DNA of 63,375 nt, counting the filler, from Stramenopiles sp. TOSAG23-6 (lineage: Eukaryota): NCBI GenBank assembly GCA_900128565.1. It is 10 parts of 10 records of this genome, joined end to end, with 100 filler letters (N's around TTAATTAATTAA, not from the genome) between each part and the next. Parts side by side here need not be neighbours in the genome. Positions count along the whole stretch, not along the records: positions 1 to 11,136 come from LT636278.1; positions 11,237 to 22,367 come from LT636279.1; positions 22,468 to 33,572 come from LT636280.1; positions 33,673 to 44,774 come from LT636281.1; positions 44,875 to 55,966 come from LT636282.1; positions 56,067 to 57,449 come from LT639137.1; positions 57,550 to 58,931 come from LT639138.1; positions 59,032 to 60,413 come from LT639139.1; 2 more parts are not named here. The stretch is one strand, 5' to 3'. Below the pieces are notes generated by a model. The model did not search any database. It saw only the letters and a program-made list of their open reading frames with translations, and was not told the origin of the DNA. Of the stretch, positions 10,456 to 61,995 are shown piece by piece. Both the position numbers and the translations under genes were made by a program. The stretch's first letter is position 1. Every line of letters begins with the position of its first letter.

Positions 10456-11136
10456 ATGTTAGGTGCCTTTGCAAGAAGGCAAATTTATTTGAGTGTTCGA
10501 CATGTCAGGTACTTTTCTTCTCCTAGTGTTGTAGTAGTTGGTGCATCTGTTATGGATTTGATTACGTATGTACCAAGACTCCCACAACTTGGTGAGACCT
10601 TACATGGTTATAGTTTTGAATCTGGTTTCGGTGGCAAGGGCGCAAATCAAGCAGTATCTGCAGCTCGACTTGGGTCATCTGTGGGACTTGTGTCAAGTGT
10701 TGGTGATGATGTGTATGGAAAAATGACAATAGACAATTTTCATGACCAAAATGTCAACGTAGACAATGTTGCTCTTATCCAAGGTAGTATGACCGGTGTG
10801 GCACCAATAAGTGTCGATAAAAATGGCAATAATTCTGTTGTTGTTATACTTGGTGCAAATTCGTCAATTACAAAAGAGTCAGTCAATACAGCAGAAAAGA
10901 TGATTTCAAAAGCAAATATTTTACTTGTACAACTTGAAATTGAAAATGAAGTTACAAACAAGGCTTTACAACTTGCCAAACAATATGTATGTTTTATTTT
11001 TTTTTTGTTTTCGAAAAAAAAAAAATCGAATTTATTTTTTCATACGAAATTTTGTACCTAACATTTTTTTTTTTCTGAAATATTTTTCCAAAATTCATGG
11101 AATTCTATCTATACTCAATACAGCTCCAGCCCAAAT
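10456..11136 (+). CDS. RBKS: Ribokinase, PfkB family (3' partial; intron 10987-11098)
   Basis: GGKGANQAVSAARLG, VGDDVYG, TGVAPI, LVQLEI; the splice gives LAKQY-GILSILNTAPA. Confidence 0.92.
10987..11098 (+). mobile_element. Introner-like GT-AT intron
   Basis: GTATGT..CATACGAAATTTTGTACCTAAC..AATTCAT; contains no AG; removal restores the ribokinase frame. Confidence 0.85.
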
Positions 11137-11180
11137 NNNNNNNNNNNNNNNNNNNNNNNNNNNNNNNNNNNNNNNNNNNN

Positions 11181-11192
11181 TTAATTAATTAA
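11181..11192. other. Artificial contig spacer N..TTAATTAATTAA..N (also about 22412, 33617, 44819, 56011, 57494, 58976, 60458, 61939)
   Basis: Identical six-frame-stop 12-mer inside N runs; genes are truncated on either side. Confidence 0.95.
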
Positions 11193-11291
11193 NNNNNNNN
11201 NNNNNNNNNNNNNNNNNNNNNNNNNNNNNNNNNNNNAGGTACAAAATTTCGTATGAAAAAAAAATCGAATTTGAAAAAAAATAAAACATAC

Positions 11292-12398
11292 ATATTTCTC
11301 AGATTCTATTTGTTGCTGTGTAATTTCAGATCTAAGTTTCGAAGATGTATTGCTGTTATCATTAGCTGATGCTAATGCAGAGTCAACTTTTTTACACATT
11401 TCTGCAATGACTTCATTATGACTTTTTTCGATATTTTCACGATACTTTAAAAAAAAAAAATATTTCAAAAATTTGAAATTTAAAATCGTTAGGTACAAAA
11501 TTTCGTACTAAAAAACAAATTGAAATTAATGATGAAAACAAACCTGGTATAGTCTTTGATTATACATTTGAGTCATGTCGGTGAATTCTTTACCTTGCGA
11601 AGTCTTCATTGCACATGATTTTTCTTCTAACAACTGAATTTCCTTTTGATATCGTGTCTTTTGGTAGTGAATTTCAAATTTATGTTTTTCTTCTTTTTTT
11701 CGGGAAGTCTTTGACCAAAGCAGCTCAGCTTCCGTATGATTTTTGCATGATCTCCGATGCTGATCGCGTAAGGCTTCTAATGTTATTTCAAGATCAATTA
11801 TTGGTGAACTATGGGAACCACTCGTTTGTAATCTGTGTACTGAATTCACATTATTCAGATTTTCTTTACCAGTGGCATCTGAGTGATAAATACTTTTGAC
11901 AAATTTAGGATTTTCTATTCTTGAAGAAGATACAACCAGAGGCATATTCATTTCACTTGTATGCCCAAGAGAACTTGCATTAGTGGAATTTTTGATACAA
12001 GTTCCTGTGAAAGCAGGCAAAATAAATTTAGGTGGGAGCATAGGAACAGGAACGGAGTGTACCTTGGAACTATTACTTATGTTATTTCGAATATTTGTGT
12101 CACTCTGAATATATTGGGAATTCTCCATACCTTGGAAATCGTCTTTGCTAGCAATCTTATGATTCCTTTGGTCTCCAATTCTTTCTAATTCGTTTTTATG
12201 CGATTTTAATACCTTCGTTCTCATACGAGATTCACGTAGCTTATTTTGCATCGATGTCAGTAGCGACGACGTTTCAACAAGTCTACGCTCAATAGAAGAC
12301 GAAGCAGTCGAATTCAGTGTTTGATTCACGCTTCTCATTGCCGAATCATCCTCGCATAGTGGTACATTCCCCATCAGCATTCTTGATGGGGAAGCCAT
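11292..12398 (-). CDS. Hypothetical coiled-coil protein (3' partial; family introns about 11442/11445-11543 and from 11291)
   Basis: ORF 11526..12398 joins in frame to RENIEKSH..ESEKY. Confidence 0.6.
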
Positions 12399-12709
12399 TG
12401 GAGGAGTTTGTTACTTGCTTTTATTTGCTGCTATATTCCTTGTTTTGTTTTTTTGTGAACAAAGAAAAATTTCAACGTGAAAAAAATTCAGATTCAAAAA
12501 GCCGGGTTTAGTTAGCTAGGGTTAGGGCTCGGCGTTTTTTTCTCCTTTCGGAGCTTATGTGAAACGGTTATTTAACGCTTTGGGTGGAACGTCCCTCTGG
12601 TAGCTAAGATAGTTGTGGGAAGATAGACTCTACATTTTTATTCTTCTTGATAGTGAGGTGGAGTTAGCAGGATCATTATTCCTCCTCCATTTCATTTGCA
12701 CTCTCCATA

Positions 12710-18375: not shown

Positions 18376-19525
18376 ATGGCCCGAGAGACAGCAGTAGAAC
18401 ATAAAAAGTAAGTTGCTACATTCAATTATCTATTGTTTATATCATTGTGACTGAGTTGCTATGCTTAACTTTAACTTTCTTTTTACCATGATGTTTGACT
18501 TGTTACTAGCTTGCCGCATTGCTCTTATGTACTAGTCAACACTTTCCCTCTATATTCTCTCTGTATTCTGAGTATTATTTTCTCTAATGATAAGTTTGTG
18601 ATAATTTCCTATCCTAACATATAACATTACTTTGATATTTATCTACAATTATAGCACTGGTAATGGTTTTTTCAAGTCAGGTGATTTGGATAACGCAATT
18701 ATTCACTACACCAAGTCCATCGAAGCTGACCCAAGCTACCACGTCCCTTACTCCAACAGGTCTCAAGCTTATTTCAAACAGAAAAAGTACGAAAAAGCTG
18801 CTGCTGATGGCCAGTCTTGTATCCGTGTCAACCCAGAGTTTTTGAAAGGTTACCATCGCGCTGCTAATGCTCTTTTGGCTCTGAGAAAGTACGACGTCGT
18901 CATGGAGTGTTTGGATGTCGCTTACCGCAGTGGTTTCCGTGCTAACGGTGATTTGGCTGATATTGATGCTCAAGCACGCCCAATGGCTGAGAAAATGGCA
19001 CTTGCTAAGCGTCAAAATATGTCAAGAGCAGAACAATTGAAATTTGAAGGAAATGACTTAGTCAAGAAAGGAATGTACGAACAAGCTTTGGAAAAATATA
19101 ATCAAGCAGTTGCTGCTTGCAAAATGCCAGAAGATAAGAAGCTTTACGTTGCTTGCGTAGGCAACCGTGCTCTTTGCTGGCAACAGCAAAGTGCATTCCA
19201 TCAGATGATTGAAGATTGTAATCTTGTCCTTGAGCATGATCCAAAAAATATCAAAGCTNTCTTCCGTCGTGCATNTATGTTTTTTTTCTTTCAACTTCAA
19301 ATTATTTTTTTTCGTACGAATTTTTGTACCTAACGATATTTTTTTTTTTTTTAAATATTTTTTCAACATACATGCGGATTCGAAGGAAGGGAAAAGTATC
19401 GCCTTGCTCTTCAAGACATCAAAGCTGTACTTGCAATCAATCCTACGTGGGATGCTGCCAACAAAGCTCAACATCGTCTTGGCCGCGCTGTCAATATGTT
19501 GAAGAAAGTAAAACAAGCTAGATAA
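18376..19525 (+). CDS. TPR co-chaperone-like protein (STI1/TOM34-like); exons 18376-18407, 18655-19274, 19374-19525
   Basis: GNGFFKSG..YSNRSQAY and KFEGNDLVKKG..GNRALC TPR clamps; intron 1 is GT-AG, intron 2 is GT-AT family. Confidence 0.85.
18408..18654 (+). other. Canonical GT-AG intron
   Basis: GTAAGT..ATAG; joins HK-N-TGNGFF in frame. Confidence 0.85.
19275..19373 (+). mobile_element. Introner-like (G)T-AT intron
   Basis: nTATGT..core..ATACAT; gives FRRA-C-GFEG..ALQD. Confidence 0.8.
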
Positions 19526-19715: not shown

Positions 19716-21548
19716 CTAAGGATCTTTGACTAAATTAATGAAGTTTCTTTCAATATTCATCAATTCTTCTTCGATCAGAACACCCCCTGGACCCCCGAGA
19801 TCAGCAGCTGCCTTCTTTGCTTCCATAGCAGCGCGTTTCTCCCGTTTCTGTGCATCTCTTGCAAGAGTCAATAAATTCTTTTCTCGCATAAATTCTCTCT
19901 CCAGCATTGCTCCCATCGCTGGTTTTTCATTTCCTTGAGGTTTCCATAAGCTATCGCTTAACTCTAAAAGCGACACTGTGCCACTATTATCACCAATTGC
20001 AACAAGTTGAACGGAAGCCTTATTATTTTGGCTATTAGAAATCGCAATGGAAGACAACGCATCGTCACATACTTTATGCGAATATGCGACCTCATTTTGC
20101 CTGAAGAAGTAATCCCAAACATCGACAACACCATCTTGACGGGCGACAAAAAATACCCCGGGTCTTGTTGGAGACCAACAACCTGCAGTTAAATACGATT
20201 GATGATATTTTGTAGTCATGATTGGTGTTTTCAAATCTTCTGTCCAAATACGGGCTGTCCAATCACCCACATGTATCTTGGAAAAATACTTCAAAAAACA
20301 AAAAAAATTGTTAGGTACAAAATTTCCTATAAAAAAATAAATTTGAAATTGAAAAAAAATAAAACATACAGTCATAAAATATTTTGTGTGAACTGGATTT
20401 CTCTGTATTGAATATATTGGAGCATGGTGCTTGCCAGGTCCATCTGAATATATTGATACACCATTTTTTGTTTTTTTGCTTCTCTTATTAATCGACGCAA
20501 CGATTCCTTGTTCGGTTCCAACTAAGTACTTATGAGGTCCAGCTTCTGAGTTATAGGCCATACAAGATGCACCATATACTTTATCAGTGCCTTCTAGGGT
20601 GATCCGTTCAACTGGCTCATTTAATCTTCGAGTATCCCACCACAATATTTGCCCATCAGTAGAACAAGAAACACAAGAAGTTCCGGTTTTACTTTGAGGC
20701 CATTGGACGTCATATACTGGATCATGATGCGATGTCTCAATTTGACTTGTTGAAGTCGCACTCTCACTGCTTCGTCGATCAAAGGTGCAAATCAAACCGT
20801 TATACGAACCACCGACAAGGACTTCAGTATTCTTTGGATTGAATCGGAGAGCGCATAATGGCGAATCAGGAGTTAACGTCGACTCTGGTGCATTAGGTTT
20901 CTGAACGTCCCAAATATATGAACTTACAGGTAAATTTTTTTGAAGCAGTCTGGGATCTTGAAATTGTAACACAGAATACGAAACAGCAATTCTTGTTGGT
21001 CCATCAGGGATCCAATCAATCGTAGCTGCTGTGCGACGCATAGAACATGGGTCACGAAGGACAGCCAAGCCTTTTGCCGAAGGAGGTTCTGAAGAGTGAT
21101 CCTCCAAGAGTTCGTCAAAATATGTTTCATAAATATTAATTGTGTTATTTTGTTTGACTCCCATTTGTATGACAGGTCCAAGTTTGGAAACGGAAGATCC
21201 TAGTGGCTCTGCAGCTTCTGTGCTTCCTTTTGTCTTTCCACCCTTTTCCCTTCGTTTTCTGTATCGTACCAACGCAGCTTCATCATCTATGTCAATCTCT
21301 TGTGGCCACCCACCTTCATTATGCGTTTGTCCCTTTTCACCCATAGCAACAGGTTTTGTAGTCACTTTAGACACCGATAATTGTGGCGCGGTGTCTAATG
21401 TAACATGTAAACTTTCCTTTCTTAATAAGGAAACACCTCCATCACTAGAAGATATAACTTGCGCTAAAACTTCTGCGGGCATGTCGTCAAATTTTAGTTC
21501 TTTTCCAAAATGTCTTCGGGGTTTTGAGTACTCATAGACGAGATCCAT
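19716..21548 (-). CDS. DNAI2: Axonemal dynein intermediate chain 2 (WD40; ODA6/IC69-like)
   Basis: MDLVYEYSKPRRHFG, HNEGGWP, KQNNTINIYETYF, SHHDPVY, VGDWTARIW, WSPTRPGVFF. Confidence 0.92.
   Translation of the reverse strand: MDLVYEYSKPRRHFGKELKFDDMPAEVLAQVISSSDGGVSLLRKESLHVTLDTAPQLSVSKVTTKPVAMGEKGQTHNEGGWPQEIDIDDEAALVRYRKRREKGGKTKGSTEAAEPLGSSVSKLGPVIQMGVKQNNTINIYETYFDELLEDHSSEPPSAKGLAVLRDPCSMRRTAATIDWIPDGPTRIAVSYSVLQFQDPRLLQKNLPVSSYIWDVQKPNAPESTLTPDSPLCALRFNPKNTEVLVGGSYNGLICTFDRRSSESATSTSQIETSHHDPVYDVQWPQSKTGTSCVSCSTDGQILWWDTRRLNEPVERITLEGTDKVYGASCMAYNSEAGPHKYLVGTEQGIVASINKRSKKTKNGVSIYSDGPGKHHAPIYSIQRNPVHTKYFMTVCFIFFQFQIYFFIGNFVPNNFFCFLKYFSKIHVGDWTARIWTEDLKTPIMTTKYHQSYLTAGCWSPTRPGVFFVARQDGVVDVWDYFFRQNEVAYSHKVCDDALSSIAISNSQNNKASVQLVAIGDNSGTVSLLELSDSLWKPQGNEKPAMGAMLEREFMREKNLLTLARDAQKREKRAAMEAKKAAADLGGPGGVLIEEELMNIERNFINLVKDP
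20271..20369 (-). mobile_element. Introner-like GT-AT intron (99 nt, read through in the ORF track)
   Basis: A 33-aa Phe-rich insert splits FMT|VGDWTARIW; GTATGT..GATACAT. Confidence 0.9.
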
Positions 21549-21916
21549 CGTAGAATAACCTTCTTAATTGTAGGTAATCTAAATCTAAGAATGTGGCAAT
21601 TAATTAAAAATATATTCTTCCACGTTAGTCTAAGAGATCTTCTTTCAAAGGTTTTGGAGGTACATACTCAATGTAACCGCGTAGAGAATTGTAACGCCAA
21701 AAATCCAATTAGGTACGAAAAGTTTGTATGAAANTATATCCAACGATCAGAATTTGATTTGCACGATAGTACAAAGACTAGCTACTACAAACAGTTGTAC
21801 CAGTATTGATCACAACATTGATCACATTGATCTGAGATATCAAGTCTATTTTCTATCGTACATTTGCTAAAAGCAAGTAACTTACAGTTGAGCTCAACTT
21901 GAAAATATCTCATTCA

Positions 21917-22573: not shown

Positions 22574-25500
22574 ATGTGTCATATGTTACTACTAGTAATA
22601 TTTTCTCTTTTTAGAGGCACTCACTCAGCTCAAGAGTTAAAACATTATGAACATTATCGCACCCAGCGTCACACCAGCAGCAGTGTTGAACGACCCTTAA
22701 AAGTATTGCAGTATAATGTATACAATTTTTACGACAATGATTGGTACCATAGGATGAATTTTGAAGAAAGCAAACAACATCGAAGCTTTGCGCAACAAAT
22801 GAGAATTATCAAAGAGTCAGACGCAGATGTTGTTGCTCTGGAAGAGGTTGTATTTAAAAGGCCCGATGGACCTCTACAGACAGCTTATATTTCAGAAAGG
22901 AGATTTCGGCTTGTTATGAAGGCGATGAAGTATTCGATCTTTTATTGTGAAGCTTCGCGAGATTTCGATAACCCTATAAATGGAAAAACGGCACTTTGGA
23001 ATGTTCTTGCCATCAAAGATGAACTTTCCCCCAACTTACATCCACCTAAAACTCTAGTATTAAGTACACAAGATGAAGAACGTAGATGTATATTTTCATC
23101 ATTAAAAAAAAAATATTTTTTTGTACCAAATTTTTGTACCTAACAAATGTTTTTTTTACCGAGAAAAAAAAAATGTTTTCACTATACATGCGTTGTTCAA
23201 GCACACTTTTACTATGGAGGGATAAAAATCACAGCAGCAGCAACTCATTTGTCATTTGGGGAAGTTTCGTACCAAGAAAAAAACCTAGTCAATTTTATGA
23301 AACCATCACGACCATCACTTACAGTATCTTCACATCAAATAATTATCGGAGATTTCAATCATTCAAAAACGGACCTAATATTGTTAAACAGGCATTACGA
23401 AATTGATGAATTTATCGGGAGTACAGGTAATAAGAGAAATCTTAATGGTGAAGCCATAGACCTAATATTTCATACAAAAACGTTGCAAAGTATTGGTAGA
23501 GCTGAAGCTATCAAAGGGTCTAATGTACGTTAATGATGAATTTTAAATTTATTGTTCATTCAAATGTTCAAATGTGTATTTTTTCTTTGCATTTTTCGAG
23601 GAATTGTTTTTGACCAATGCCGAATTTCTACATTTTTTTCATAATACATGTACATTCAGATCATTTTGCAATTCAGCAGTCATTTAAATGGGAAGATACA
23701 CCGTCAAATTCACAAGAGAGAAAGGAAGGCAAATCACGTTTACAGGAACTTATCCTTCAGAGAGTAAGAAAAGTGCAAAATGCTCTACAGAAAAAGTCTT
23801 TACCACAATTACAGCAGGAACGTTGCTGTGTAATGATGCAACTTCCTCAGAGATGTTTGCCTTTAGCGATGCCAGTTTTACCTCTTTGTACCCTTCAATG
23901 CCCTGAACTGTTGACATGTGTCGACAAATCACAGTTAAAACCACCACAACCAAAGCCAGTCAGGCAATTATTACTATGTAATGACACACAGAGTAGTTGT
24001 ATGTATAATCTTCATCATAAATTTAAAATTTATTTTGTTTTCCTAGAAAATTACTTAATGTTTTGTACCTAACAAAAATGAAAATTTTATGACATATTTT
24101 TCCAAAATACATCTGCAGTAAAGGAGTACATTGTAAAAGCTATTTTTTCTGGAAAATCTTTCCCAAGAGATGTATTAGAGAGTTTAGTTAAACAAAATCT
24201 TTTATATCAAAAAGATGTGGAGTTGATATTAAAAATGCAAAAATTACAGACAAAATCTTGTGTTCTTGCAGGTGGTGGTAGAGAGGTCAGTGGTGGTGGT
24301 TTTGGTGGCGGTGCTAGCATGCGTGTTGATGGTGGTGCTGCTGTTGCTGCTGTTGGGGGTGGTGGCGATCGTACTTCTACTGTCCGTTTTGGCACTCGTT
24401 ACGATCGTGCATCAGCTGGTGGTGGTGGTGGTGGTGCTGCTCTTGTCGCTGCTGTCGCTGATGTCGCTCGCGGTCAACTTTTTTTTCCTGGTCTTACTGG
24501 TCTTTTGGCTAGTATTGGTGGTGATAGAGGTGAACGCAGGATCTATCAACCAAATGGTATTTTGTATCTGGGTCACTCAATTGGTGGTGGAGGTGCCAAA
24601 AATGTGCTTCTTCGTATTGTCAAAAGTATGAAATTAGGTACATATCATGATAACAAATCGTTTTTGAAAAAAACAGGTCACAATAAACATAGTAGTAACG
24701 ATCACGTCGCATATGTTACACCACATCTTGAACAAGAGCCACAACCAATGACTATTGAAAATACTATAATCATCTCTCCTGATGCTATTAGCAGACATGA
24801 AAATAGCTATTGGTTTAGTCAGGGTTGGCTGTATGGTAAATTGTCAGGTAATCCAATTGTTGCAGCACGAGAAAATGGTTCAAACATTATTATTGGATCT
24901 CGAAACGGGGGTAAACGTGTAGTATGTAGAAATCTTGAGTATGCATTTGAAGATCCAGTGTCTCCAGAGATTAAAAGTGCTGAATTTGAAGTTGACATTG
25001 GAAGGCAGGGAGGCGAAAAAAGTTGTTATGAAAGCCAACCCGGTAATAATGATGATGCAGCATTATATTACAGTAAAATGTGTTTCCAACGACGTCAAAA
25101 ACTTGATCATGTCTCAACAAAAGTATGCCAAGATGTAATTAAAAAAATGCTCGAAACTGGTTATTACACAAAAGGAGTTAAATTTCATAATTTTGTCGGG
25201 GATTTTGAAAAGACACTCGGTGGAACTGATTATAGACATGGCGAGGCTTGTTTTTGGGGTGGTTTGGATTTACGCAATGTTCAGCGCGTTGACTTATTTA
25301 CAAGGACAAAGGATGAAGAACAACAATTAAAAAACCAACTAAGAATGCAGGGGACAACAAATGTTCATGTGAATGATCGAGATGGTTGTAAGAATTTTTA
25401 CAATTCTCGGGCTCGAAAATATCAACCATTGAAAACACCCGCGAGTAAAAGAGCAAAACGGATTCATGACGTTTTGGAAAATAATAAAATTTACTATTCC

Positions 25501-26232: not shown

Positions 26233-27551
26233 ATGCCAGCGAGAAGGAAACGTGCATGTAATGCACAAGAAAACATAGATGCTGGAAACAAGAGGACAAA
26301 AAAGATTTCTGAAAAAAAGACAAAGAAAGTGTCCAAAAAAAAATCGAAAAAGACCAGAGAACGTAGTGTTAGTCGAGACGATGACGACTGTGATAGTATG
26401 GCAAACAAAAAGCAGAGACGACTCAGTACAGGTCCAGTAAATATATCTCTAATGGGATTAAATTCCCATGAAGAAAAGTCTGTTGCTGAAGAAGAAAAGG
26501 TTGTTGATAAAATTTCAGAAAGAAAAGTGTCAAAGAAATCCAAAAAAAGTACAAAGACCAAGGCCAATAAGAAAAAACAAAAAATCCAAAAAGAAGCAAA
26601 GGACGCTACGTCTGATGGTGACAGTACATCACTTGAAATTCAAGATACTACTACGGCATCAGCAACGCTACATTCTTTACAAAATATTGTTTCTATTTTA
26701 AATGAGACACTTTTACCGCCATCAAACTCTGAATCGAAACTCCGTCAAAAATTGGAAGAATTGCAAGCCAATTATGATGAGTTGCGAACACTCCGTGAGA
26801 CTGAATCCGAAAAACAGTTACATAAAGCAAAAGAAACGATAAAGAAATTACAATCCGCAAATGAGTCCTATTTAGCTTTTTTCGATAAGGAACAAGAAAT
26901 TTCAAACCCTAACCCTACTGAATCTAAAAATTCAAAAGATGAGATTTTATTGGAGACTGAAAAAAAGCTCGCTGCAAAAAGCTACGAAATTAAGGTTATG
27001 AGAATGTTAACTGGCCTATATGTTAAAGCAGATGAGTCTAATCATAAAAAGTTTCTTTGCACTTCAATTTGTCACAGTCAATCGAGAGCAAGTGAGTTTG
27101 CAATTGTTCTTCCTGAGGATGATGTACGTTTTCATTTGAATATTTTTTTGGTACGAAATTTTGTACCTAAACAAAAAAANTTTTTTTTTTTTTTTNGATT
27201 TTTTTTTTACTATAAAAATCCTCCACCTCACTTTTTTTTTAATTTGTCATATATTCCCCCAAATAAATGATTCAGTAGAGTTCGTGGCCCGTAAGAATGT
27301 CAATCTTTTACCAGATTTTTTACAGGAGCCAATTGCTTTTTCAATGGAAGATGTACGTTTTCAAAATTGAATTTCAAATTTATCTTTTTTTTTTCGTACG
27401 AAATTCCGTACCTAACGAATTTTGACTACATTTTTTTTTCACAATACATGCTCCTGGTGTTATATCACAGGTAACGCATGCCCTTCGCTGGGGCGTTGAT
27501 GACGAGGAGGAAGGCAGTGGAGATGAGAGTGGAGTTGAAAGCACCGGTTGA
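26233..27551 (+). CDS. Monopolin Csm1/Pcs1 (Titan9)-like kinetochore protein; introns 27124-27268, 27353-27449
   Basis: Coiled coil YDELRTLRETESE, then MLTGL and LPDFLQEPIAFSMED-AP, typical of the Csm1 RWD C-terminus. Confidence 0.65.
27124..27268 (+). mobile_element. Introner-like GT-AT intron
   Basis: GTACGT..core..AATAAAT; phase 0 join. Confidence 0.75.
27353..27449 (+). mobile_element. Introner-like GT-AT intron
   Basis: GTACGT..GTACGAAATTCCGTACCTAAC..CAATACAT. Confidence 0.8.
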
Positions 27552-28725: not shown

Positions 28726-29144
28726 TTTAAAAAATATACAATCCCTTTGATAAGAAAACCTCTTACGTCTTTAAAAGTTTTTTAAATTTACCCAGCACGC
28801 AGAGAGCAAAGCTGTGCATCTGCCGCAGCCAGTGCAGAAAAATTAACGACAATTTTTTTTTTCTAGCTAGGGTTGGGGGTATTTTAGTAAAATTATGCAT
28901 TGTATTTTGCTTCACACCATGTCATTAAGAAGTAGTTCAACTACTGATTACAGCGATACAGATGGAATTGATGCCAATAAGGCTCTGACGAGTCGAACAA
29001 GGAGCGAAGTTACCCCATTGATTATAGCTTCACAGAATTGGAGGTTTAGGGTTAGGTTAGGGTAGATCTCTCAGGCTCATTTTAAAAATCGTAACAAAAA
29101 ACGTTTTAAAAATCGTAACAAAAACAAGCAATAACCAGAGAAAG

Positions 29145-33291: not shown

Positions 33292-33389
33292 ACTAACCCT
33301 AACCCTAACTAAAAAAAATACGAAATATCTAAAAAAAAAATAAAACAAATTTATATAACTTTTGGTAGAATATTTTATGTATATACTAA

Positions 33390-33494: not shown

Positions 33495-33727
33495 ATGTGT
33501 TTTGTAAAAATATTTCAAAAAAAAATACTTAAATTTGTTAGGTACAAAATTTCGTACGAAAAAAAAAATCGANNNNNNNNNNNNNNNNNNNNNNNNNNNN
33601 NNNNNNNNNNNNNNNNTTAATTAATTAANNNNNNNNNNNNNNNNNNNNNNNNNNNNNNNNNNNNNNNNNNNNTACGAAATTTCGTACCTAACGATTTTAA
33701 TTTTTGAAATATTTTTTCATAATCCAT

Positions 33728-43619: not shown

Positions 43620-44690
43620 ATGATGGAGCCATCAGAATCTCCTCCTTCACACAAGGTACAAAATGTCGGGATACTAAGTGATACTTCACCCCCCCCCAGT
43701 ACCACCTCCTCGACCTCAAGTGTTTGAAAAAGCACGTATCGAACGTTCACGACGAGACGCTAGTATAGAACGTGCTCGTGACGCAAGGGAGGCACTTGCT
43801 GATCTGAAACTTGAAAAGGAGCCATCAGCAGCAAAGAAATTGTTTTCTCGTTTCCTTCAAAATGTGACACCACGAACTAAAGCTCGGAGAGAGGCGAAGA
43901 GTCTTGCGCGTAAGAAAAACTTGCGCCTTGAAAAGCAAATCGCCGATAACACTCGTGAATGGGTAGAAGTTGTTTTGCCTGATATTAAAAATATGTTATC
44001 TAAGCCTAAACAATTACAACGACTTTGTTTTGCGGGGATTCCACCCAAATGTAGGTCCAGAGCATGGCTTGAATTAATCGGAAATCGAATGCAAGTGACG
44101 CCAGAGCTACTGAAAATATTTAGCGGACAAGCTACTATNTTGCGAAATAAGATAATGGATGAAAATAGACTTTTAAATAATACGAATAAAAATAAACCTC
44201 ATATTGAAAATATTAATGAGACGAAAACTAATGAGACTAATAGCAGCAAGCAAACATCAGATATACAACACAATCAACAGTTACGAAAAAAGAGTAGTTG
44301 CACACAAAATAGAAAAGAAAGTAGGTTTTTTTTGAATTTTTTTTTCATAGTAAATTTTGTACCTAACAAAAAAAATATTTTCATACCATTATAGTTCCAC
44401 TTATGTATTGATTTCAATTTTTTTCATAGAAAATTTTGTACCTAACGATTTTTTTTACTAAAAAAAAAAAAAAAAAAATATTTTTTCACAATACTCCCAC
44501 TAGAAAAGAACCAAAACAAATGGAAAAATCTCCACCGTCCAACCCTAACCCTAATACTCCCACTAGAAAAGAACCAAAACAAATGGAAAAAACTCCACCG
44601 TCCAAAAGTCGTAGATTTTCTGATACAATCACAAGAGATAAAAATATATTAGATTTAGGTCGATTGAAAAGTTTGCGTCTTATTTTTCAT
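43620..44690 (+). CDS. TBC-domain Rab-GAP, TBC1D12/14-like (partial; probable indel in the C-run near 43690; family introns about 44321-44492 and from 44691)
   Basis: EWVEVVLP..LCFAGIPPKCRSRAWLELIGNRMQVTPEL. Confidence 0.75.
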
Positions 44691-44956
44691 GTATGTTTTT
44701 TTTTTTTCAAATTCAATTTTTTTTTTCGTACGAAATTTTGTACCTAACGATTTTTTTTTGAAATATTTTTCCAANNNNNNNNNNNNNNNNNNNNNNNNNN
44801 NNNNNNNNNNNNNNNNNNTTAATTAATTAANNNNNNNNNNNNNNNNNNNNNNNNNNNNNNNNNNNNNNNNNNNNGAAAAATATTTCAAAAAAAAAATCGT
44901 TAGGTACAAAATTTCGTATGAAAAAAAAACGAATTTGAAAAAAAATTAAAACATAC

Positions 44957-45947: not shown

Positions 45948-48425
45948 ATGAATTCACTGGAGACACGAAACAATGTCATTCCTTCATTGTTTGAACTTTC
46001 CACACAGCAGTTAAGAGCACGATGCCGTACAGACTTATTGGTTTTGATATCATCTCTGACAAAAAATGCTCGTTATGTTAGTTGTGCCAAACGTGCAGGT
46101 CAACTTCATGATATTTTCCTAAAGTTAGCTAGACCCTGCTCTCGTCAAAAGTCATTCACCGCACTCGATCATTGGTTATTCCTTCTAGACGCTTGGAAAA
46201 CTACTACACTTACTGTCTGTCGCACAAATATAACTTTCCATCCATCTTTATCTCCAGGTTTGTCGCGTTTCTCACTGTTACGAAAACTTGACGCGAGCAA
46301 CTCATGTGTTCGCGATGACTCCCTTTGTCATATTGCTACTTCACTTCCAAATATAGAATGGCTAAATTTAGATGGATGTCATATAACCGATGATGGTGTG
46401 TTTGCATTATCACAAATAAGTCTACCTTACTTGCGTATTTTGGGTCTCCGCTGTCGCAGGGTCAATATTGTATGTTTTATTTTTTTTCGATTTTGAATTT
46501 TTTTTTCGTACGCAATTTTGTACCTAACAGTTTTTTTTGAATTTTTTTCTAAAAATATTTTTACAAAATACTTGCATCTTGTAGAGCTCTCGTATTGAGT
46601 CCTAGCCAAAATAGCCAAAATAGCCAAAATAGCCCAAATAATAATATGACTTCGGGTAATTCTACCCAATCGCACACATCAAATAGCTACTCTGTCCAAA
46701 GTGCTAACAATACCACATTCATTTCGAATAAGACTGACAATATAATAATATCACAGAAAAACCTAAAACTTCCATCTTTAGAAAAACTTTCTCTCAATGA
46801 AAATGTAACATCTTGGATTTATAACAAACCTGCCCTATCAAAGACAGAATGTTCAACAATTAATATTGACTTTTCAAACATTCAAAAAATATCCCTCTCA
46901 AAATTAAAAAGAGTGTTGCGTGCATATGGCCGTAGTGGTGAAGCACTTGAAGGTTGTAGAAAATCTCTAATTAAACGCGTGTATATTTTATTTTTTTTTC
47001 AAATTCATTTTTTTTTCGTAGTAAATTTAGTACCTAACGATTTTTTTCAAAAAAAAAATATTTTTCACAAAATAGTAGTGTTATCAAAATGCAACATATA
47101 GCTGATAGAAAACTGAAACAAATGTTATTATATAATGATACTTCAGAACATAAATATATCCCTCGGCCTGTATTGTCCGTTGTCCTCTTGAAATTTCAAT
47201 TTTAGTTTTTTTCCATAGTAAATTTTGTACCTAACAAAAAAAAAAAAATTTTGAAATATTTTTTCACAATTCTTAAAAACTAAAAATATTTTTTGTGTAT
47301 GTACAGATACAAACACAGTCTGTAATTATCCACAGTGCTCTGTACATGCATCAATCCGGCCTGGCTTGTCCGGGTTACTAATGGGAGGTTGTAGTGGAAA
47401 CTGGGTAGGAAAAAGTGTAATTTTAAACATTGAATTTTTTATATTTTTTTTTTTTCGTACCAAAATTTGTACCTAATAAAAATATTCAAAAAAAATCAAA
47501 AAAAATATTTTTTCACAATACAAATCACAAACAAAAATGAAGTCACTATATGGACGAGTTGTTGGATTAGAATGGAGAAAGGTAAAATACAAGGTGGTGG
47601 TATATCATATACGTTCTCCTGATGCATTTCAATTAGTTTTCATAGAAAATTTTGTACCAGAACAAAAACGAGTTTTTTTTTANAAANTTTTTTTTTTTTT
47701 TTTGGTAAAAAAATTTTGTACCTAACAATTTCTTTATAATTTTTTTTAATTTTTTTTACAATACATTTTGGCGTAATATTCAAATCCCATTTTTATTAGA
47801 AGGAACTTATGCATGTCATATATGTGATACTAAAAAAACAAAACAAAGCACGTGTAACCCTAACCCTAATAAGATTTTAGTCAGTGATGAAAATGATACA
47901 CCCAAAAATTCCCTGAATGATTTTCATACAAAAATAGTTACAAAAAAAAAGATGAACCCTAACCCTAATTTTTCTTCAAAAATAATTACAAAAAAAGAAA
48001 TGACTTTGATAAAAAAACATATAGGAAAATACCGAAATGAAATTCAATATAAAGGAACATTAATGCATATAAAAACTAATGATTTTCATAGTAATTTAGA
48101 CAGTAAAAAAAAATATTCATGGGCTTTCGTAGGTATGTTTTCTTTTTTAATTTCGAATTTAGTTGGTTTTTTTTTATAAAAATTTTGTACCTAACAATTT
48201 TTTGTTTTTGAAATATTTTTTCACAATATATGTAAATATAATAATGGCACAATTTCTTTGAATTCCGTATGTGCAGACTTTCGTACAAAACAATTCTTAG
48301 GTACAGATTTAAATACAAAAACGAATGATGTTGTAAAGCACGAAAAACGTCGTTTGAATAGTTTTGAGTTTAGTGATTCACAAAAAGAATTTGCCCGAAA
48401 AAAAAAAAAAAAAAAAAAAAAATGA
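45948..48425 (+). CDS. LRR-containing hypothetical protein with about 6 family introns (some boundaries uncertain)
   Basis: LRKLDAS..LPNIEWLNLDGCHITDDGV LRRs; open exons between core-bearing inserts. Confidence 0.55.
47609..47766 (+). mobile_element. Family intron with AT donor and duplicated core
   Basis: ATACGT..CAATACAT; T+TT joins GGIS-F-WRN. Confidence 0.6.
48133..48231 (+). mobile_element. Introner-like GT-AT intron
   Basis: AG|GTATGT..core..CAATATAT|GT. Confidence 0.75.
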
Positions 48426-48977
48426 TTAAGTACAAAATTTTCATACAAAAAGAATTTTTTCGCAAAAAAAAATAAAATAAGTGAAGGACAAAATTTTTAT
48501 AGTACAAAAAATAAATTTGGATAGATATAATATATTTTATTCTTCACGAAAAACTTGTCTGACTTTGGATTTCGTACCATTTTTTTGTACTTATTTTTTT
48601 AGGTATGAAAAAATGGTACGGAATCCAAAGATACGTAGTCTGAAACAACTTTATTCATTCATTTATTTTTGTTGATGATGATGGAGGTAGAACAAGCGGT
48701 TTTTCATTCGGAGTAATACTACAAAACCTGCACGCAACTAGTACTTTTGGGTCCTCCACAATCCGGATTTTGAATTTCTATGGGAACCGGGTAACGATAC
48801 ATCTTGAGCGTTTCTGTTGAGATAACGTATATTAGTAACGACTTTTTTCACTTATGAGGTAGGTCATCGTACCTTTACCATTCAAGGACGCAGAATTTTC
48901 ATTCATACATCACATATATATGCGATTAATCAATCCCATGAATTGCATTTTAACTCTAGACTAAAGCAATTGCTCAT

Positions 48978-54579: not shown

Positions 54580-55783
54580 ATGGCCGATAAAGTTGATACT
54601 CGCGTTCCAGTGACTGTACTTACTGGATTTCTTGGAAGTGGTAAGACTACTCTCTTGAATTACATTCTTAAAGTCCAGACTGGTTTAAAGATTGCTGTTA
54701 TTGAGAATGAGTAACTTAACTCCGAACATCTTATTTTCAAAGTAACTCGTTTCTATCATACACATCATTTGTACTTATATAAATGTTTTATTATATTGTT
54801 TACTCTATACAGGTTTGGTGAAGTTGGAGTTGATGACGCGCTTGTTAGGAAGAAATACGACTCAGAGGAAGAAATTTTCGAAATGAATAATGGTTGCATT
54901 TGCTGCACTGTTCGAGGTGACTTAATCCGTATTCTCGGAAAGATTTTCAAGCGCAAGACAAAACTTGACGCTTTGATTATTGAAACCACTGGCTTAGCTG
55001 ATCCAGCTCCAGTGGCTCAAACCTTTTTCATGGATGAAGAAATCAAGAGCAAAGCACGTCTAGATGGTGTGTTAACTGTTGTCGACTGTGCGCATATTAT
55101 TCAACACTTAGATGAGATCAAACCAGAAGGTGTTGAAAACGAAGCTGTAGAACAAGTCGCTTTCGCAGATCGCTTGCTTGTGAATAAAACAGACCTCGTT
55201 GATGAAAAGACTTTGGCAGAGGTAAAGAAACGTCTTAAGAGTCTTAATCCTGCAGCGAAACAAATTGAGTGTCAGTACTCACAAGTCGACCTTAAAGAGC
55301 TGATGGGACTCGGAGGATTTAATTTGAAACGTGTTCTCGAATTTGAGCCAGATTTTCTTGACGATGACGGTGGAGAACACATGCATGATCAATCAGTCTC
55401 CTCAGTAGGTATTCGAGAACCTGGGGAGCTCGATATGGATAAATTAAATGCCTGGCTTGGTAAATTATTGAAAGAGGACGGCGCAAACATTTATCGCATG
55501 TACGTTGTAACCCTAACCCTAACCCTTTTTTTTTTTCTAACACTTTTTTTTGACCATTTTAGAATTTCTATTTTTTTTACATTACATGAAAGGAGTGTTG
55601 GCAATCAAAGGTATGAAGGAAAAGTTTGTCTTTCAAGGAGTTCACATGCTTTTCGATGGAGAGCCAATGGTAGGAGAGGAGTGGCAAGAGGGCGAGACGA
55701 AAACGAACAAATTTATCTTTATTGGTAAAAACCTTAAAGAAGATGAACTACTTGCATCCTTTCGCGCTTGTATTGCAAAGTAA
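54580..55783 (+). CDS. ZNG1: COG0523/CobW-family Zn metallochaperone GTPase; exons 54580-54710, 54813-55499, 55588-55783
   Basis: [51 protein letters not shown]. Confidence 0.92.
54711..54812 (+). other. Canonical GT-AG intron
   Basis: GTAACT..TACAG; rebuilds ENE-FGE. Confidence 0.9.
55500..55587 (+). mobile_element. GT-AT intron carrying (CCCTAA)n instead of the hairpin core
   Basis: GTACGT..TTACAT; AT+G rebuilds IYR-M-KGVL. Confidence 0.85.
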
Positions 55784-56066
55784 TTGTGGAATATCCTCAA
55801 CTTTTGTGATGGGAAATGGTGCATTGATGCATCTAATACGATGATGATATGAATGAAGTATGTATGAGTGTGTAAGGCTAAAAAGTGTGTGACGTGTATA
55901 TGTATGTTTTATTATTTTTTTTTAACAAAAAAATCGATTTTTTTTTCGTACGAAATTTTGTACCTANNNNNNNNNNNNNNNNNNNNNNNNNNNNNNNNNN
56001 NNNNNNNNNNTTAATTAATTAANNNNNNNNNNNNNNNNNNNNNNNNNNNNNNNNNNNNNNNNNNNN

Positions 56067-57449: not shown

Positions 57450-57603
57450 NNNNNNNNNNNNNNNNNNNNNNNNNNNNNNNNNNNNNNNNNNNNTTAATTA
57501 ATTAANNNNNNNNNNNNNNNNNNNNNNNNNNNNNNNNNNNNNNNNNNNNGGTACAAAATTTCGTACGAAAAAAAAACGAATTTGAAAAAAAAATAAAACA
57601 TAC

Positions 57604-58639
57604 AAGTCGCTGATCGACAAAGAGAATTTGAGAATAGATCTGATAACTCTTTTATGCAACATTTTACTTCAACATCTGTAAACATAACTACAACTAAAGC
57701 TAGTATTGCCTGGTGTAATTGTATACTCTCCGGGCTACTCTGAAGTTCAGCAAAAGAAAACCCGCATGGAATCCAATAACGAAGACATGACAGAGTCTGT
57801 TTCAGAGCCTTGCGACGAATTTCACCTTGTTTTGCTGTCAGAAGGTATAAAAACATACGCAAAACATCAGATTTATTTGAAGATAATTCTTCGCGCAATT
57901 GTGAAATTTTTTCAGGTGTACAAAAACCGTTGTATACTTTTGAAGATGTCGTTAATTCATCGAGTTCTGTCTGAAGCGCTTCTAAAATTAGTAAAGCAGG
58001 GACAAGATGTATTGTGAAAAAAAAATCGAATTTTTTTTTGTTAGGTACAAAATTTCGTATGAAAAAAAATAAATTTGAAATTCGAAATTGAAAACGTACA
58101 TGGGTGTCTAACACTGACAAACAGTTTCTTACACACTCAGCAACACAGCCACTACCTACTGCAATAGAAACTGACGCATGTGCTAAACAAACACGTTTGC
58201 ATACACCAGGTGCCATTGCTGGAGTATCTCGCACAAGTGTATTGAGAAATTCGCGTACATTGTTCTGACCTGCCACGTCCAACGTATCCCATTGCTTCTG
58301 TACTTTTGAATATAACATATTCGCCGCATAAAATTGAACTTGCATTGATGCTACTGGTTGTTCTTGCTTTAACAATTCATATGACATTAGCCATGCTTGG
58401 GGGCTCCGGGAAAATGCAGACATCCAGTCAATAGCACGCTTATTGCCTTCATACATTGCTTTAAGTGCAATCTCAACTTGTGCCCTAGTATGGCCTTGTC
58501 CAGCATATCTAGGACTTGACACTGGAGAAATGAAGCCATCTCTCGGTGATCGTGGTGATCCTGCTAAAGATCGCGGTGTTCCTGCAGGAGATCCAAAGGA
58601 TAGTGCAGCGGATTCGCCAGTATTGGAATTAATAAACAT
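57604..58639 (-). CDS. Importin-beta family, transportin-3/importin-13-like (3' partial; intron 58007-58099)
   Basis: AIDWMSAFSRSPQAW..QFYAANMLYSKVQKQW (IBN_N). Confidence 0.75.
58007..58099 (-). mobile_element. Introner-like GT-AT intron (93 nt, read-through)
   Basis: GTACGT..core..CAATACAT. Confidence 0.8.
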
Positions 58640-58893: not shown

Positions 58894-58931
58894 ATGGAAG
58901 AAGATAAAGCAGCTCTCGTTGTCGATAATGG
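58894..58931 (+). CDS. Actin or actin-related protein, N-terminal fragment
   Basis: MEEDKAALVVDNG at the contig end. Confidence 0.7.
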
Positions 58932-59031
58932 NNNNNNNNNNNNNNNNNNNNNNNNNNNNNNNNNNNNNNNNNNNNTTAATTAATTAANNNNNNNNNNNNN
59001 NNNNNNNNNNNNNNNNNNNNNNNNNNNNNNN

Positions 59032-60413
59032 GCAATGCCAATGGCAAGACAAGCTCCATAACGCACATGAGAGCAATAACTAGTACTAAGTACTTTGACG
59101 AGATCTGGAACTAATTCAGGAGAACGAAATAAAACAAAACCAAGACACATAACAGCAGATCGGCGAACATCCTTATTGACATCAGTGACGGCAACGCGTA
59201 ATAAACGTTTAATGGCCGTGTTGTTTGAAGTTCCACAGAAAGCCATGCCAATAGTAAAGCATCCACCATAACGCAAAATGTGATCCTTGTCACGTAACAA
59301 TTGTTCAATAAGAGTGTTCGCTACCTCTTCTTGTGCGTACATTGTTAATGCTAAAGCCATTGCTAAACCACGAATGATTTTCTCATGTTTTGTGTCATGT
59401 GCATGAGTAAGTAATTCTTGTACACCGGCGACAACTAAATTGTCAGAGACTGAATATAAAATATCTTTCAAGTTAGAATAAATTGAAGTAGACCCGGAAG
59501 CCATCGCAGCACACCCAAGGCCAAGACAAGCCCCGTGTAAAACAGTTGGATCTCGTGTATTGTTTTGCGCATTCGTCAAATAGTCAACAATCTTGCCACC
59601 ATCCGTCCATCCTTTATTTGCATGAATTAGACCCAGAGCATAGAGAGCTCCGCCTTCAGAGAAAGGATCTGTAGTTACACTTCCACCACCAACTTGTGGA
59701 AGATATGGCTTTAAAAGTGTCAAGCTTTCACTTAAATGTCCTTTGTGTACAACACCAAGTCCTCCTATTGCAGTGAATTTTGCCCAATCAGTAGCCTTAC
59801 CTAGCCATTCAAGATTATTTCGGAGAAATACATCATGTGTTGTACCACAATTCATAAAAGCATGAGCAGTGATACAAGCATTATGTAATACAGAACTGCG
59901 AGTTCCAATTCCATCTTTCAACTTTTGAAGTAGTAATTGATCAGTTTGGTTGTGGGAACACAAGAAGTCAAGCATAATTCGAGTAGCTGCATTACCATCA
60001 AGAATACTCTTTAGAGTAATTAAACGTTCAGAATAGTCCGAATCCTCAACATCGTCAACAACGTTGGATGATTTTTCAAGCTTTACAGTGTCAACAGTAG
60101 GTACGGCATCAGCATGCATTGTGATAAAATATTTTTTTAGTAAAAAAAATTGTTAGGTACAAAATTTCGTATGAAAAATAAATTTGAAATTCATAATGAA
60201 AACGTACATTTGTCTCAGTTGACGCTGCTACTAATTTGGCTTCCTCTTCCTCTTTTTTCATCTCACTCTTCAGTTTTGGTAACGCTGTATGAACCTCACT
60301 CAAAAACTTTTGGTTTTCGCTTTCTTGTACTCGAAAAGCGACTTGATATGCAATGAGAGATTTGTTTTCTCCAGCTTTCAACAAACGATTAAGATATTCC
60401 GCCACACCAGAGG
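59032..60413 (-). CDS. PSMD1: 26S proteasome subunit RPN2 (internal fragment; intron 60114-60207)
   Basis: FLRNNLEWLGKATDWAKFTA, EGGALYALGLIHAN, HEKIIRGL, DVNKDVRR. Confidence 0.93.
60114..60207 (-). mobile_element. Introner-like GT-AT intron
   Basis: GTACGT..core..CAATGCAT; TETN-ADAV. Confidence 0.8.
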
Positions 60414-60572
60414 NNNNNNNNNNNNNNNNNNNNNNNNNNNNNNNNNNNNNNNNNNNNTTAATTAATTAANNNNNNNNNNNNNNNNNNNNNNNNNNNNNNN
60501 NNNNNNNNNNNNNGTTAGGTACAAAATTTCGTATGAAAAATAAATTCGAAATTGAAAAAAAATAAAACGTAC

Positions 60573-61741
60573 AAGCGCAAGACTATTTGTTTGTTTTTTA
60601 TGTACAATTTGAGTCGTCCAAGATCTCCACGCATGAGATTTTTGACGATGTAAAAGTATACCTATAACACGTTCTATAGAATATACAGCAACATCAATAT
60701 GAGAATTCCAAACATTACCTAATGCATTTCTTCTCAACGCTTCACATGTATTTTTGAAAAATATATATATATTTATATTTTTTTTAGTAAAAATGTTTTT
60801 GCAAGGTATGAAATTTTTTTACGAAAAAAAAAAATAATAGTTTTTTTGAAATCTCTGAAAAAAAAAAATAATAGTTTTTTTGAAATCTCTGAAAACGACG
60901 TACAGGTCCAAGTATTCCAACTTCGAGCGATTCGTACATAAATAAAATGTTGAACAACTTTATCTAATTTTAATATTGCATGTGTTTTGGAAAAATATTT
61001 CACAAAAAATCTAAAAAATTTTGTTAGGTACAAAATTTTTATAAAAAAATAAATTCGATTTTTTTGTAAAAAATAAAAAAAAATAAAATGTACATGATGC
61101 TTATTTTGATTTTGTAAAGACTCATACAACTCCGTATTGAATCCATCAACTCGAAGGCTCTCTAGTTTAGCTTGGTTTAATTTATCATGTATTTTGAAAA
61201 CATATTTGTAAAAGTTTGAACGTTTTGTAAGGTACGAAATTATTTTTGTTAGGTACGAAATTTCGTACGAAAAAACAAATGAAAGTGAAAAAATACATGT
61301 ACATGAGAACCAAACACAAACATATCCCATGCTCGAAATCCTTTTGCTTTTCGTTTGTGCAAAGCATAATCAAGAGTTCGTCCTAGTAGACGAGCNGCAT
61401 GTAGTTTGAAAAAATATTTCAAAAAAAAAATTTAAAATTTGTTAGGTACAAAATTTCGTACGAAACCAAAAAAAAAAAAAAAAATCGATTTTTTTGTTAA
61501 AAATAAAAATAAAACGTACATGCATTTTTGTCATTTTTTCATAGTACAAACTAGCCTTATTTTGGATATCACTAATTTTTTGACGTGTATTTCTATTATT
61601 TTTTTGTAAAATTACCACAATTGATTTTTGATACCATTTTGAAAACCCTTTATGAATTGCTTTGATACGAAATCGATCAATATACTTGTTAAACAATAAC
61701 AATATACTATACAAACCCTGTCGATGGAAGAGGTTGTCGAC
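60573..61741 (-). CDS. Sfi1-like Trp-repeat protein fragment; GT-AT introns 61399-61519, 61187-61302, 60980-61093, 60746-60903
   Basis: Five short exons join in frame; repeats KGFSKW, KGFRAW, RSWNTW, HAWRSW. Confidence 0.6.
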
Positions 61742-61995
61742 ATATATATTGCAAAGAATATTTAAAAATTTTGAAATTTGTTTGTTAGGTATGAATGTAA
61801 ATATTTGTTTTTAACCCTAACCCTAGTTTTTATTAGTTTCAAAAAAAAAAAAAAAAAAAAAAAAATTGAAAAGTTTAAAATTTTTGTTATTTTTNNNNNN
61901 NNNNNNNNNNNNNNNNNNNNNNNNNNNNNNNNNNNNNNTTAATTAATTAANNNNNNNNNNNNNNNNNNNNNNNNNNNNNNNNNNNNNNNNNNNNT

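Follow-up and report, generated by a model that had tools for sequence, protein, structure and literature searches.

The 63,375-nucleotide (nt) stretch of Stramenopiles sp. TOSAG23-6 DNA analyzed here in its entirety (GenBank assembly GCA_900128565.1; hereafter, the window) carries 40 copies of a family of inserts that are probably U2-type spliceosomal introns of an introner-like mobile family, excised from an initial GT to a terminal AT. Within this 63-kb window, AT is the dominant acceptor: the homologous end is AT in 27 of the 32 copies in which it can be determined, and AG in 1.

The copies were collected with an nhmmer profile built from 20 complete members, which returned 41 hits between positions 10985 and 61523; one is a palindrome echo, leaving 40, in agreement with the roughly 40 copies of an abundant introner-like family reported in the initial annotation. 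The core motif, RTACGAAATTTYGTACCTAAC, has 36 matches at 3 or fewer mismatches, against 0.02 expected, and none of 100 shuffles yielded as many; several of these matches come from reading a copy's palindromic part on the reverse strand too. A multiple alignment of 21 complete copies is coterminal with the introns, each copy amounting to about a whole intron, and its consensus reads (a)TGTAyGTTTT, a variable A/T stretch, TTTTTTTTTCrTACGAAATTTTGTACCTAAC, a second variable A/T stretch, and GAAATATTTTTyCAmAATACAT(g). Divergence among the copies is concentrated in the A/T stretches, and both ends and the core are almost invariant. Three introns without the core, running GTACGT...ATACAT, were missed by the profile (Table 1) and are either old, eroded copies or the genome's general intron type. 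The curated set on which the counts of splice signals are based comprises 24 complete introns of 88 to 158 nt.

The core also contains a 16-nt palindrome, GTACGAAATTTCGTAC (at 33036-33061 and in most copies), which is immediately followed by the branch motif. No role in splicing is known for it, and it could be a protein-binding site left behind by the mobile element.

Further signs of abundance come from the contigs themselves, 8 of the 18 contig ends at linkers lying inside a copy; assemblies typically break at abundant repeats. In a seawater DNA run, bins over the element are thousands-fold deeper than exon bins, which is a hint only, as depth there sums over organisms. Scanning metagenome contigs for the exact core recovered one locus, a copy on an independent contig (L001) that has the same ends and is in frame, and the same scan of viral contigs recovered none, numbers too small for statistics on the ends.

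Based on flanking open frames and gene identities, 37 of the 38 copies that could be assigned a strand are sense to their host gene (binomial p ~3e-10; the other 2 of the 40 were left out as unassignable), and the sole antisense copy is a weak 55-nt partial hit in an ankyrin/GYF gene (35165-35219). The reported sense orientation holds. Excision from GT to AT places 15 of 15 junctions of four multi-intron genes within single open frames (chance, ~(1/3)^15 = ~7e-8): 3/3 in the gene starting at 22499, whose spliced frame spans 963 amino acids (aa); 6/6 in the gene starting at 30132 (801 to 807 aa); 4/4 in the minus-strand gene starting at 60520 (260 aa); and 2/2 in the gene starting at 47480 (225 to 228 aa). 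Two of three junctions are in frame in a fifth gene (36377), the third being separated by N bases, and single-intron genes likewise keep their frame, all of which bears out the earlier statement that AT-ending excision restores reading frames. Two joins named in that annotation stand in part. The ribokinase join QY/GIL (a slash marks joins throughout) is consistent with the frame, the insert at 10987-11098 contains no AG, and the next AG is 25 nt downstream and out of frame, with only 12 codons left before the contig end; the pleckstrin homology (PH) domain join E-W-LSA is supported by the whole-gene open frame only.

Four joins can be fixed against independent sequences, and the dynein and CobW residues predicted earlier (FMT/VGDW and IYR-M-KG) were both recovered. 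In the dynein IC2 gene (20271-20369), the insert is itself open in frame, alignments to solved structures span both of its sides with an insertion of 31 to 33 residues, and 10 of 10 homologs read KYFMT/VGDWTAR without a gap. For CobW (55500-55587), 11 of 12 full-length homologs read IYRMKGV and the twelfth, which is bacterial, reads RSKG, with S for M; none is gapped, and the only AG inside the insert is out of frame. Comparing the CobW exons singly with solved structures and Pfam placed exon 2 at position 34 of CobW_C and left the join unbridged, whereas the homolog alignment bridged it. Within the J domain (32994-33103), the ortholog P0242, one unbroken 341-residue protein with 67% identity, reads TLRDVRRAYQ (HYSGPKVGQRVTLRDVRRAYQRGLRLCHPDKQG) against the spliced TLRDIR/RGYQ (HFKGPEVGELVTLRDIR/RGYQFALRICHPDKQG), without a gap, and so confirms the annotated insertion after C; this insert has no AG after its branch motif, and the next AG lies 41 nt downstream, out of frame. 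Searching representative proteins with exon 1 of the same PH/J gene returned one weak match (E = 1.8e-4) and no ortholog, and the read-through of the importin-like gene aligned to solved structures as far as residue 187, short of its junction.

The fourth join comes from an RNA library. A 208-nt contig of the polyA metatranscriptome X9 (record 25) covers 30790-30937 and 31037-31096 with one differing letter per piece, and the 99 nt that it skips are the predicted intron (30940-31038) within a 2-nt sliding ambiguity; a contig of the DNA run X4 (record 11) passes from the exon into this insert. The RNA junction check proposed in the initial annotation is answered to this extent, by one low-depth contig joining 30937 to 31037. 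Reads were mapped over 29676-33572, where most of the joints listed link different repeat copies and are noise and where further genuine junctions may exist beyond the listing, and among the matches listed for that interval the RNA runs X7 and X10 gave no bridging record (uncovered parts being no finding).

Repeated bases across the boundaries allow several cuts at each join. The allowed terminal dinucleotides are AT-AC, TG-CA, and GT-AT at 30940; TG-CA, GT-AT, TA-TG, and AT-GT at 20369; AT-AC, TG-CA, GT-AT, and TA-TG at 55500; and GT-AT, TA-TG, and AC-GT at 32994. GT-AT is the sole register common to all four, in keeping with the earlier argument that copies with unlike flanks exclude TG-CA and AT-AC as the general register.

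At the 5' ends of the curated introns, G is found at +1 in 22 of 24, T at +2 in 24, A at +3 in 23, and T at +6 in 24; the donor is GTAYGT or GTAYAT in 22 (consensus, GTAYGTTTT), and the other two begin with N (19275) and AT (38806). The 3' ends have C at -3 in 20 of 24 and A at -2 and T at -1 in every case, so that all 24 end in CAT or TAT, in a T-rich...YCAMAATACAT context. A CTAA motif occurs in 23 of the 24, its median distance from the end being 40 nt (range, 23 to 62), and is followed by a T-rich tail, with no AG between motif and end in 17 of these 23. The inserts have the U2-type GT donor and the CTRAY branch site with pyrimidine tract, but not the YAG end, and, judged from sequence, they appear to carry the complete major-spliceosome signal set bar the last base. 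Features of U12-type introns are absent: there is no [AG]TATCCTT donor, and TACCTAAC, the branch motif here, lies a median of 40 nt before the end, as opposed to a TCCTTAAC-like site, which in U12-type introns typically lies ~10 to 20 nt from the 3' end. A TAT conserved 15 nt upstream of the end goes unused, and two copies hold an earlier CAT, which argues that the longer AATACAT context, and not a bare AT, marks the site. A nonexhaustive pattern scan, which yielded mostly false pairs within long open frames, showed no clear ordinary GT-AG intron in the window.

Several observations weigh against the interpretation of these inserts as GT-AT introns of an introner family. Homologous ends other than AT occur as AG (46981-47075), TT (the copies at 46470 and 47170), AA (the copy at 47415), and TC (the copy at 44414), most of them in apparently noncoding stretches, and two copies, at 38806 and in the composite at 47609, begin ATACGT; together, these show that the rule is not a strict dinucleotide. 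The copy at 38806, where the in-frame donors of 38740-38857 include no GT, looks like an AT-AT intron, but a sequence error or a dead gene could also account for it. AT lies directly upstream of 15 of the 24 curated introns, where an AT-AC cut would give the same message, and the register is consequently a parsimony choice made over the family as a whole, not for each copy separately. The one join seen among the RNA-library matches listed, that at 30940, rests on one contig with a depth of 2.7, which could in principle be DNA of an insert-free strain, the library not being proven free of DNA. Rfam at gathering thresholds detected nothing in the window. Pairwise likeness among the copies is 52 to 82% (median, 66%, in ungapped columns), which is not that of a fresh burst. 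Direct repeats of at least 2 nt flank 22 of 24 introns, where swapping the flanks between copies leads one to expect 19.5, a marginal excess (p ~0.05), and flanking repeats vary in length from 0 to 6 nt. Lastly, proteins of relatives lack the inserts (P0002, P0122, and P0242), but the contigs encoding them may not be DNA, and no presence/absence difference was seen at the DNA level.

Four other explanations for the inserts have to be considered. For copies preceded by AT, the excised unit might be an AT-AC intron (ATGTAYG...ATAC) removed by either a U12-like or a U2-type route, with GT-AT confined to a minority; AT-AC introns are an established class (PMC1557818), and the messages at 30940 and 55500 would be the same. 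Such a cut, however, cannot yield the exact joins at 20369 (after CT) and 32994 (after GC) in the same family, the donor does not resemble that of U12 introns and the branch motif is too distant from the end, and it is the GT register that puts GTAYGT at canonical donor positions, all of which makes this alternative unlikely. The inserts could also be ordinary GT-AG introns that use nearby AGs, as the public gene model (P0001) assumes in taking the dynein AG 6 nt before the AT; the copy at 46981 does end in AG, and those at 11442-11543 and 46470 have in-frame AG options. We consider this extremely improbable, since an AG between branch motif and end is missing from most copies, moving on to the following AG would break the frame at 30940, 32994, and 55500, the RNA-library contig joins at the AT-equivalent site, the dynein AG would add the residues IH that are missing from 10 of 10 homologs, and the sole AG of the CobW insert breaks the frame.

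Excision might otherwise proceed outside the standard spliceosome through pairing of the intron ends, a mechanism put forward for the nonconventional introns of euglenids and the introner elements of Amoebophrya. The ends do form a short inverted repeat, ATGTAY/RTACAT, of 6 nt if the exonic AT is counted, with 4 to 6 possible pairs, but copies without the upstream AT keep just 4 weak ones, and the full set of spliceosomal signals is conserved. In the folds of six copies (exonic bases excluded), no consistent structure joins the ends (z, -2.2 to +0.5), and in each of the six minimum-energy structures the final ~15 nt remain single stranded, which argues against a euglenid-like or Amoebophrya-like route; we regard one as very unlikely. 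A programmed elimination of the inserts from DNA, or their absence from some strains, would make the joined contig a reflection of such DNA, and the joined form was indeed seen only as one contig, in a library that may contain DNA. Strict sense orientation would not be expected under this explanation, though, X4 DNA contigs pass from exon into insert, and inserts are present both in the assembly and in the independent metagenome contig, leaving it with almost no likelihood.

Under the preferred interpretation, in which the inserts are GT-AT introns, each copy would bring its own splice signals in the sense orientation: a GTAYGT donor, the 16-nt palindrome leading into CTAAC, a T-rich stretch of ~40 nt, and the TATTTTTYCAMAATACAT end. 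Both cuts would be made by the major spliceosome. The first and last bases of an intron pair in spliceosomes; here, the last U would stand in for the usual G opposite the intron's first G, with the A at -2 retained along with its usual contacts, and copies starting with ATACGT (AT-AT) would pair as A-U. A 2-bp AT target duplication is a possible source of the terminal AT, in which case the intron consists of the element plus one (the downstream) duplicate. Among the flanking bases of the 24 introns, A occurs at -2 in 18, T at -1 in 20, and G follows in 18; AT before 15 and G after 18 fit a 2-bp AT duplication and, equally, a preference for AT/G sites, as in reverse splicing, and swapping the flanks does not discriminate between these two. 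A downstream GT follows none of the 15 introns preceded by AT and 6 of the 9 others, for which a simple, fixed target duplication does not account. Of the hallmarks of a miniature DNA transposon (MITE), the terminal inverted repeat is short here and the flanking direct repeats have no fixed length. No transposase was seen among the large open frames scanned, and no autonomous partner was found.

It is also possible, and we put it forward tentatively, that the major spliceosome of this lineage of marine heterotrophic flagellates has moved genome-wide to AT, set within AATACAT, as its standard 3' splice site, a change brought about by an invading mobile element with the acceptor supplied by the element's own end or by a 2-bp AT target duplication. 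This would constitute a second, independent origin of AT acceptors beside that in Fritillaria, and a cleaner one, with the donor and branch site remaining canonical.

Compared with known systems, the family resembles introners (Micromonas, Aureococcus, and ~5% of surveyed eukaryotes), in which GY, rarely GA, donors are combined with AG acceptors (PMC9860276, PMC12130899). As in introners, related copies each constitute a whole intron in unrelated genes of a marine protist, bear splice signals, are biased to the sense strand, are AT rich relative to exons, and leave a restored message on excision; unlike in introners, the acceptor is AT, with no clear target duplication of fixed length and no autonomous partner detected. 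In a 2025 introner survey, the 3' sites described are AG and AC, and families whose sites were unfamiliar were kept only where RNA supported them (PMC12130899). Because annotated introns appear to be the starting point of introner surveys (PMC9860276) and the 2025 survey has AG and AC as its 3' sites (PMC12130899), a family of this type could be missed.

AT-ending introns themselves have precedents. The initial annotation, essentially right in its other points, had taken AT as the dominant acceptor, which is borne out in this window, but its view that such an acceptor is not described is unsupported, even though it named Fritillaria: in that genus, 3' AT is the most frequent end (44% in F. pellucida and 34% in F. 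borealis), with YAY as the last triplet (PMC13326754), so a majority AT acceptor is already known in one animal lineage. Major noncanonical classes of Fritillaria are AG/AC and AG/AT, its 5' ends are very diverse, and divergent U2AF paralogs bind the noncanonical ends (PMC13326754). Our inserts share with Fritillaria the AT as commonest end, the YAY last triplet (CAT or TAT in 24/24), a retained U-rich tract, and the apparent use of the major spliceosome; YAY is often present just upstream of the 5' site in Fritillaria and is present there in 8 of our 24 introns. They differ from the mostly AG 5' ends of that animal in having GT in 22 of 24, a yeast-like branch motif, and a protist host.

Introns of Amoebophrya have no dominant terminal dinucleotides and carry inverted repeats of 8 to 20 nt that form end-joining hairpins (PMC7789003). 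The present family, also of repeated introns in a marine protist with short direct repeats across the boundaries and inverted repeats, differs in its single dominant GT-AT pair, its end complementarity of ~6 nt, and the lack of a stable end-joining fold. GT-AT introns are otherwise rare: animals have a handful per genome (PMC1557818), and in Physarum they make up 17% of the noncanonical introns classed as U12 type, noncanonical introns being 0.8% of all (10.1101/2020.10.12.336362); in both, most are U12 type with the branch site near the 3' end. These share our terminal dinucleotides and indicate that spliceosomes can ligate after AT, but the inserts described here are the majority class in the window and have U2-type signals. 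A paper on single-cell genomes of uncultured stramenopiles contains neither "splice" nor "canonical" and uses "intron" twice, in the methods only (PMC5778133), and a 2026 preprint on marine single-cell genomes gives intron proportions only. Our literature search, which left subscription journals and supplements largely outside its range, found no GT-AT introner family and no noncanonical splicing in marine stramenopiles (MAST type). A GT-AT introner family in a stramenopile-like protist would be a new combination of introner family and non-AG acceptor, in a new lineage.

The window consists of contigs chained by nine N44-TTAATTAATTAA-N44 linkers and contains scattered single N bases; it has a G+C content of ~24 to 40% and is gene dense, with many long, unbroken open frames. 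Stramenopiles supply the closest organism-named homologs of its dynein gene. The best match, P0001, is identical to the window's dynein across all aligned blocks, from which it follows that P0001 is the public gene model of the window's own sequence; its source label and the dynein homologs point to a marine heterotrophic stramenopile, putatively of MAST type. Near-identical DNA is present in three small runs of one organism and in seawater metagenomes, and small parts of the window are present in three seawater metatranscriptomes. The inserts (Table 1) reside in unrelated genes, encoding dynein IC2, CobW, a PfkB kinase, and tetratricopeptide repeat (TPR), PH/J-domain, importin-like, proteasome/cyclosome (PC)/HEAT-repeat, and coiled-coil proteins.

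Table 1. Family copies and related introns, by position in the window
Position	Strand	Feature	Host and basis
10987..11098	+	Complete family intron, 112 nt, GT..AT	PfkB/ribokinase-like gene; core with 0 mismatches; 49 bits; exon 1 matches PfkB; QY/GIL in frame
11237..11291	-	5' part of copy, cut by contig end	Profile positions 4-58; adjoins N linker
11442..11543	-	Family intron GTTTGT...GTAT, 102 nt	Excisions of 99 nt (AG 3 nt earlier) and 102 nt both in frame; acceptor ambiguous
19275..19373	+	Family intron, 99 nt, first base N	TPR gene; phase-1 join continues TPR-like sequence
20271..20369	-	Family intron, 99 nt, GT..AT	Axonemal dynein intermediate chain 2; join exactly fixed
23088..23189	+	Family intron, 102 nt	Profile; in 963-aa spliced open frame (3/3 junctions)
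23525..23649	+	Core-less intron, 125 nt, GTACGT...CATAATACAT	Junction in 963-aa spliced open frame
23999..24112	+	Diverged family intron, 114 nt	Profile; junction in 963-aa spliced open frame
27124..27179	+	Family copy, 5' part; 3' end masked by N bases	Profile
27353..27449	+	Family intron, 97 nt; in-frame CAT also 18 nt upstream	Profile and frame
30940..31038	+	Family intron, 99 nt	Join seen in RNA-library contig
31188..31288	+	Family intron, 101 nt, within PH domain	Profile; spliced open frame
31431..31532	+	Family intron, 102 nt, join E/WLSAM	Profile; spliced open frame
32530..32627	+	Family intron, 98 nt	Profile; spliced open frame
32749..32927	+	Composite/degenerate intron with partial copy	3' end 32909 (TAT) or 32927 (AAT), both keep 801-807 aa frame; flanking exons homologous to P0242
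32994..33103	+	Family intron, 110 nt, preceded by C, J domain	Join exactly fixed by ortholog P0242
33495..33572	-	3' part of copy at contig end, ending CACAT	Profile
33673..33727	+	3' part of copy at contig end, ending TCCAT	Profile
35165..35219	+	Weak partial hit, 13 bits, E = 0.003, antisense in ankyrin/GYF gene	Profile; chance or relic possible
38181..38288	+	Family intron, 108 nt, preceded by A	Profile; frame ambiguous (N bases in next exon)
38413..38513	+	Diverged family intron, 101 nt, GTAAGT donor	Profile; spliced frame
38806..38897	+	Family copy beginning ATACGT, AT..AT, 92 nt	Family-homologous start joins 97-codon exon to 677-codon exon
44325..44494	+	Two degenerate copies downstream of gene; second ends ACTC	Profile
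44691..44774	+	5' part of copy at contig end	Profile
44875..44956	-	5' part of copy at contig end	2OG-dioxygenase-like gene; profile
46470..46573	+	Family copy, homologous end ACTT	TT (104 nt) and AG 12 nt downstream (116 nt) both in frame
46981..47075	+	Family copy with AG at homologous end (AAAATAG), in frame	End comparison and frame reading
47170..47523	+	Two degenerate copies, ends TT and AA	Just before likely start codon 47537
47609..47766	+	Composite copy, 158 nt, homologous donor ATACGT	GTATAT 9 nt upstream also in frame
48133..48231	+	Family intron, 99 nt, preceded by G	Profile; spliced frame
55500..55587	+	Core-less intron, 88 nt, GTACGT...ACATTACAT, with CCCTAA repeats	CobW gene; join exactly fixed
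55902..55966	+	5' part of copy at contig end	Profile
57550..57605	-	5' part of copy at contig end	Profile
58007..58099	-	Family intron, 93 nt	Importin/exportin-like gene; profile
60114..60207	-	Family intron, 94 nt	Gene with PC and HEAT repeats, read as proteasome regulatory subunit
60514..60572	-	5' part of copy at contig end	Profile
60746..60903	-	Core-less intron, 158 nt, GTACGT...AAAATACAT	Pattern scan; spliced open frame
60980..61093	-	Family intron, 114 nt	Profile; spliced open frame
61187..61302	-	Family intron, 116 nt, duplicated branch region	Profile; spliced open frame
61399..61519	-	Family intron, 121 nt	Profile; spliced open frame

The inserts are strongly clustered by gene, some short genes having 4 to 6 and some very long genes having none. 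Long genes free of inserts lie at 1310-7483, 12668-18139, 41111-43219, and 48960-53579, and the insert-free genes include a 2057-aa open frame, an 1823-aa EF-hand/UCH gene, an OPT transporter, and a 1539-aa open frame. Short telomere-like CCCTAA/TTAGGG runs are present in the window at 55510-55527, 47848-47862, 47956-47970, and 28900-28925 (minus strand) and in the metagenome contig L001 at ~2290-2330 (minus strand), variously within an intron, within apparent coding sequence, and between genes.

The one public gene model compared, P0001 for the dynein gene, takes the AG 6 nt upstream of the AT and thereby gains its two extra residues, IH. The same model (window 19716-21563, minus strand) lacks three stretches (of 9, 7, and 8 residues) over which the DNA has an unbroken open frame, and these gaps look like spurious mini-introns from a predictor that permits only GT-AG. 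A second public protein, P0121, is 99% identical to CobW exon 1 (54715-55499) and ends by reading into the insert, which indicates that gene callers applied to environmental contigs truncate such genes at the inserts.

Why introns end almost universally in AG is an open question, and this family deviates from the norm in its last base alone (U in place of G), with a canonical donor, branch site, and U-tract. Recognition of the 3' splice site is thereby isolated better than in Fritillaria, where both ends have changed. If what is seen in this window is general, the predicted proteomes of this group, which are used in phylogenomics and ecology, would be systematically damaged.

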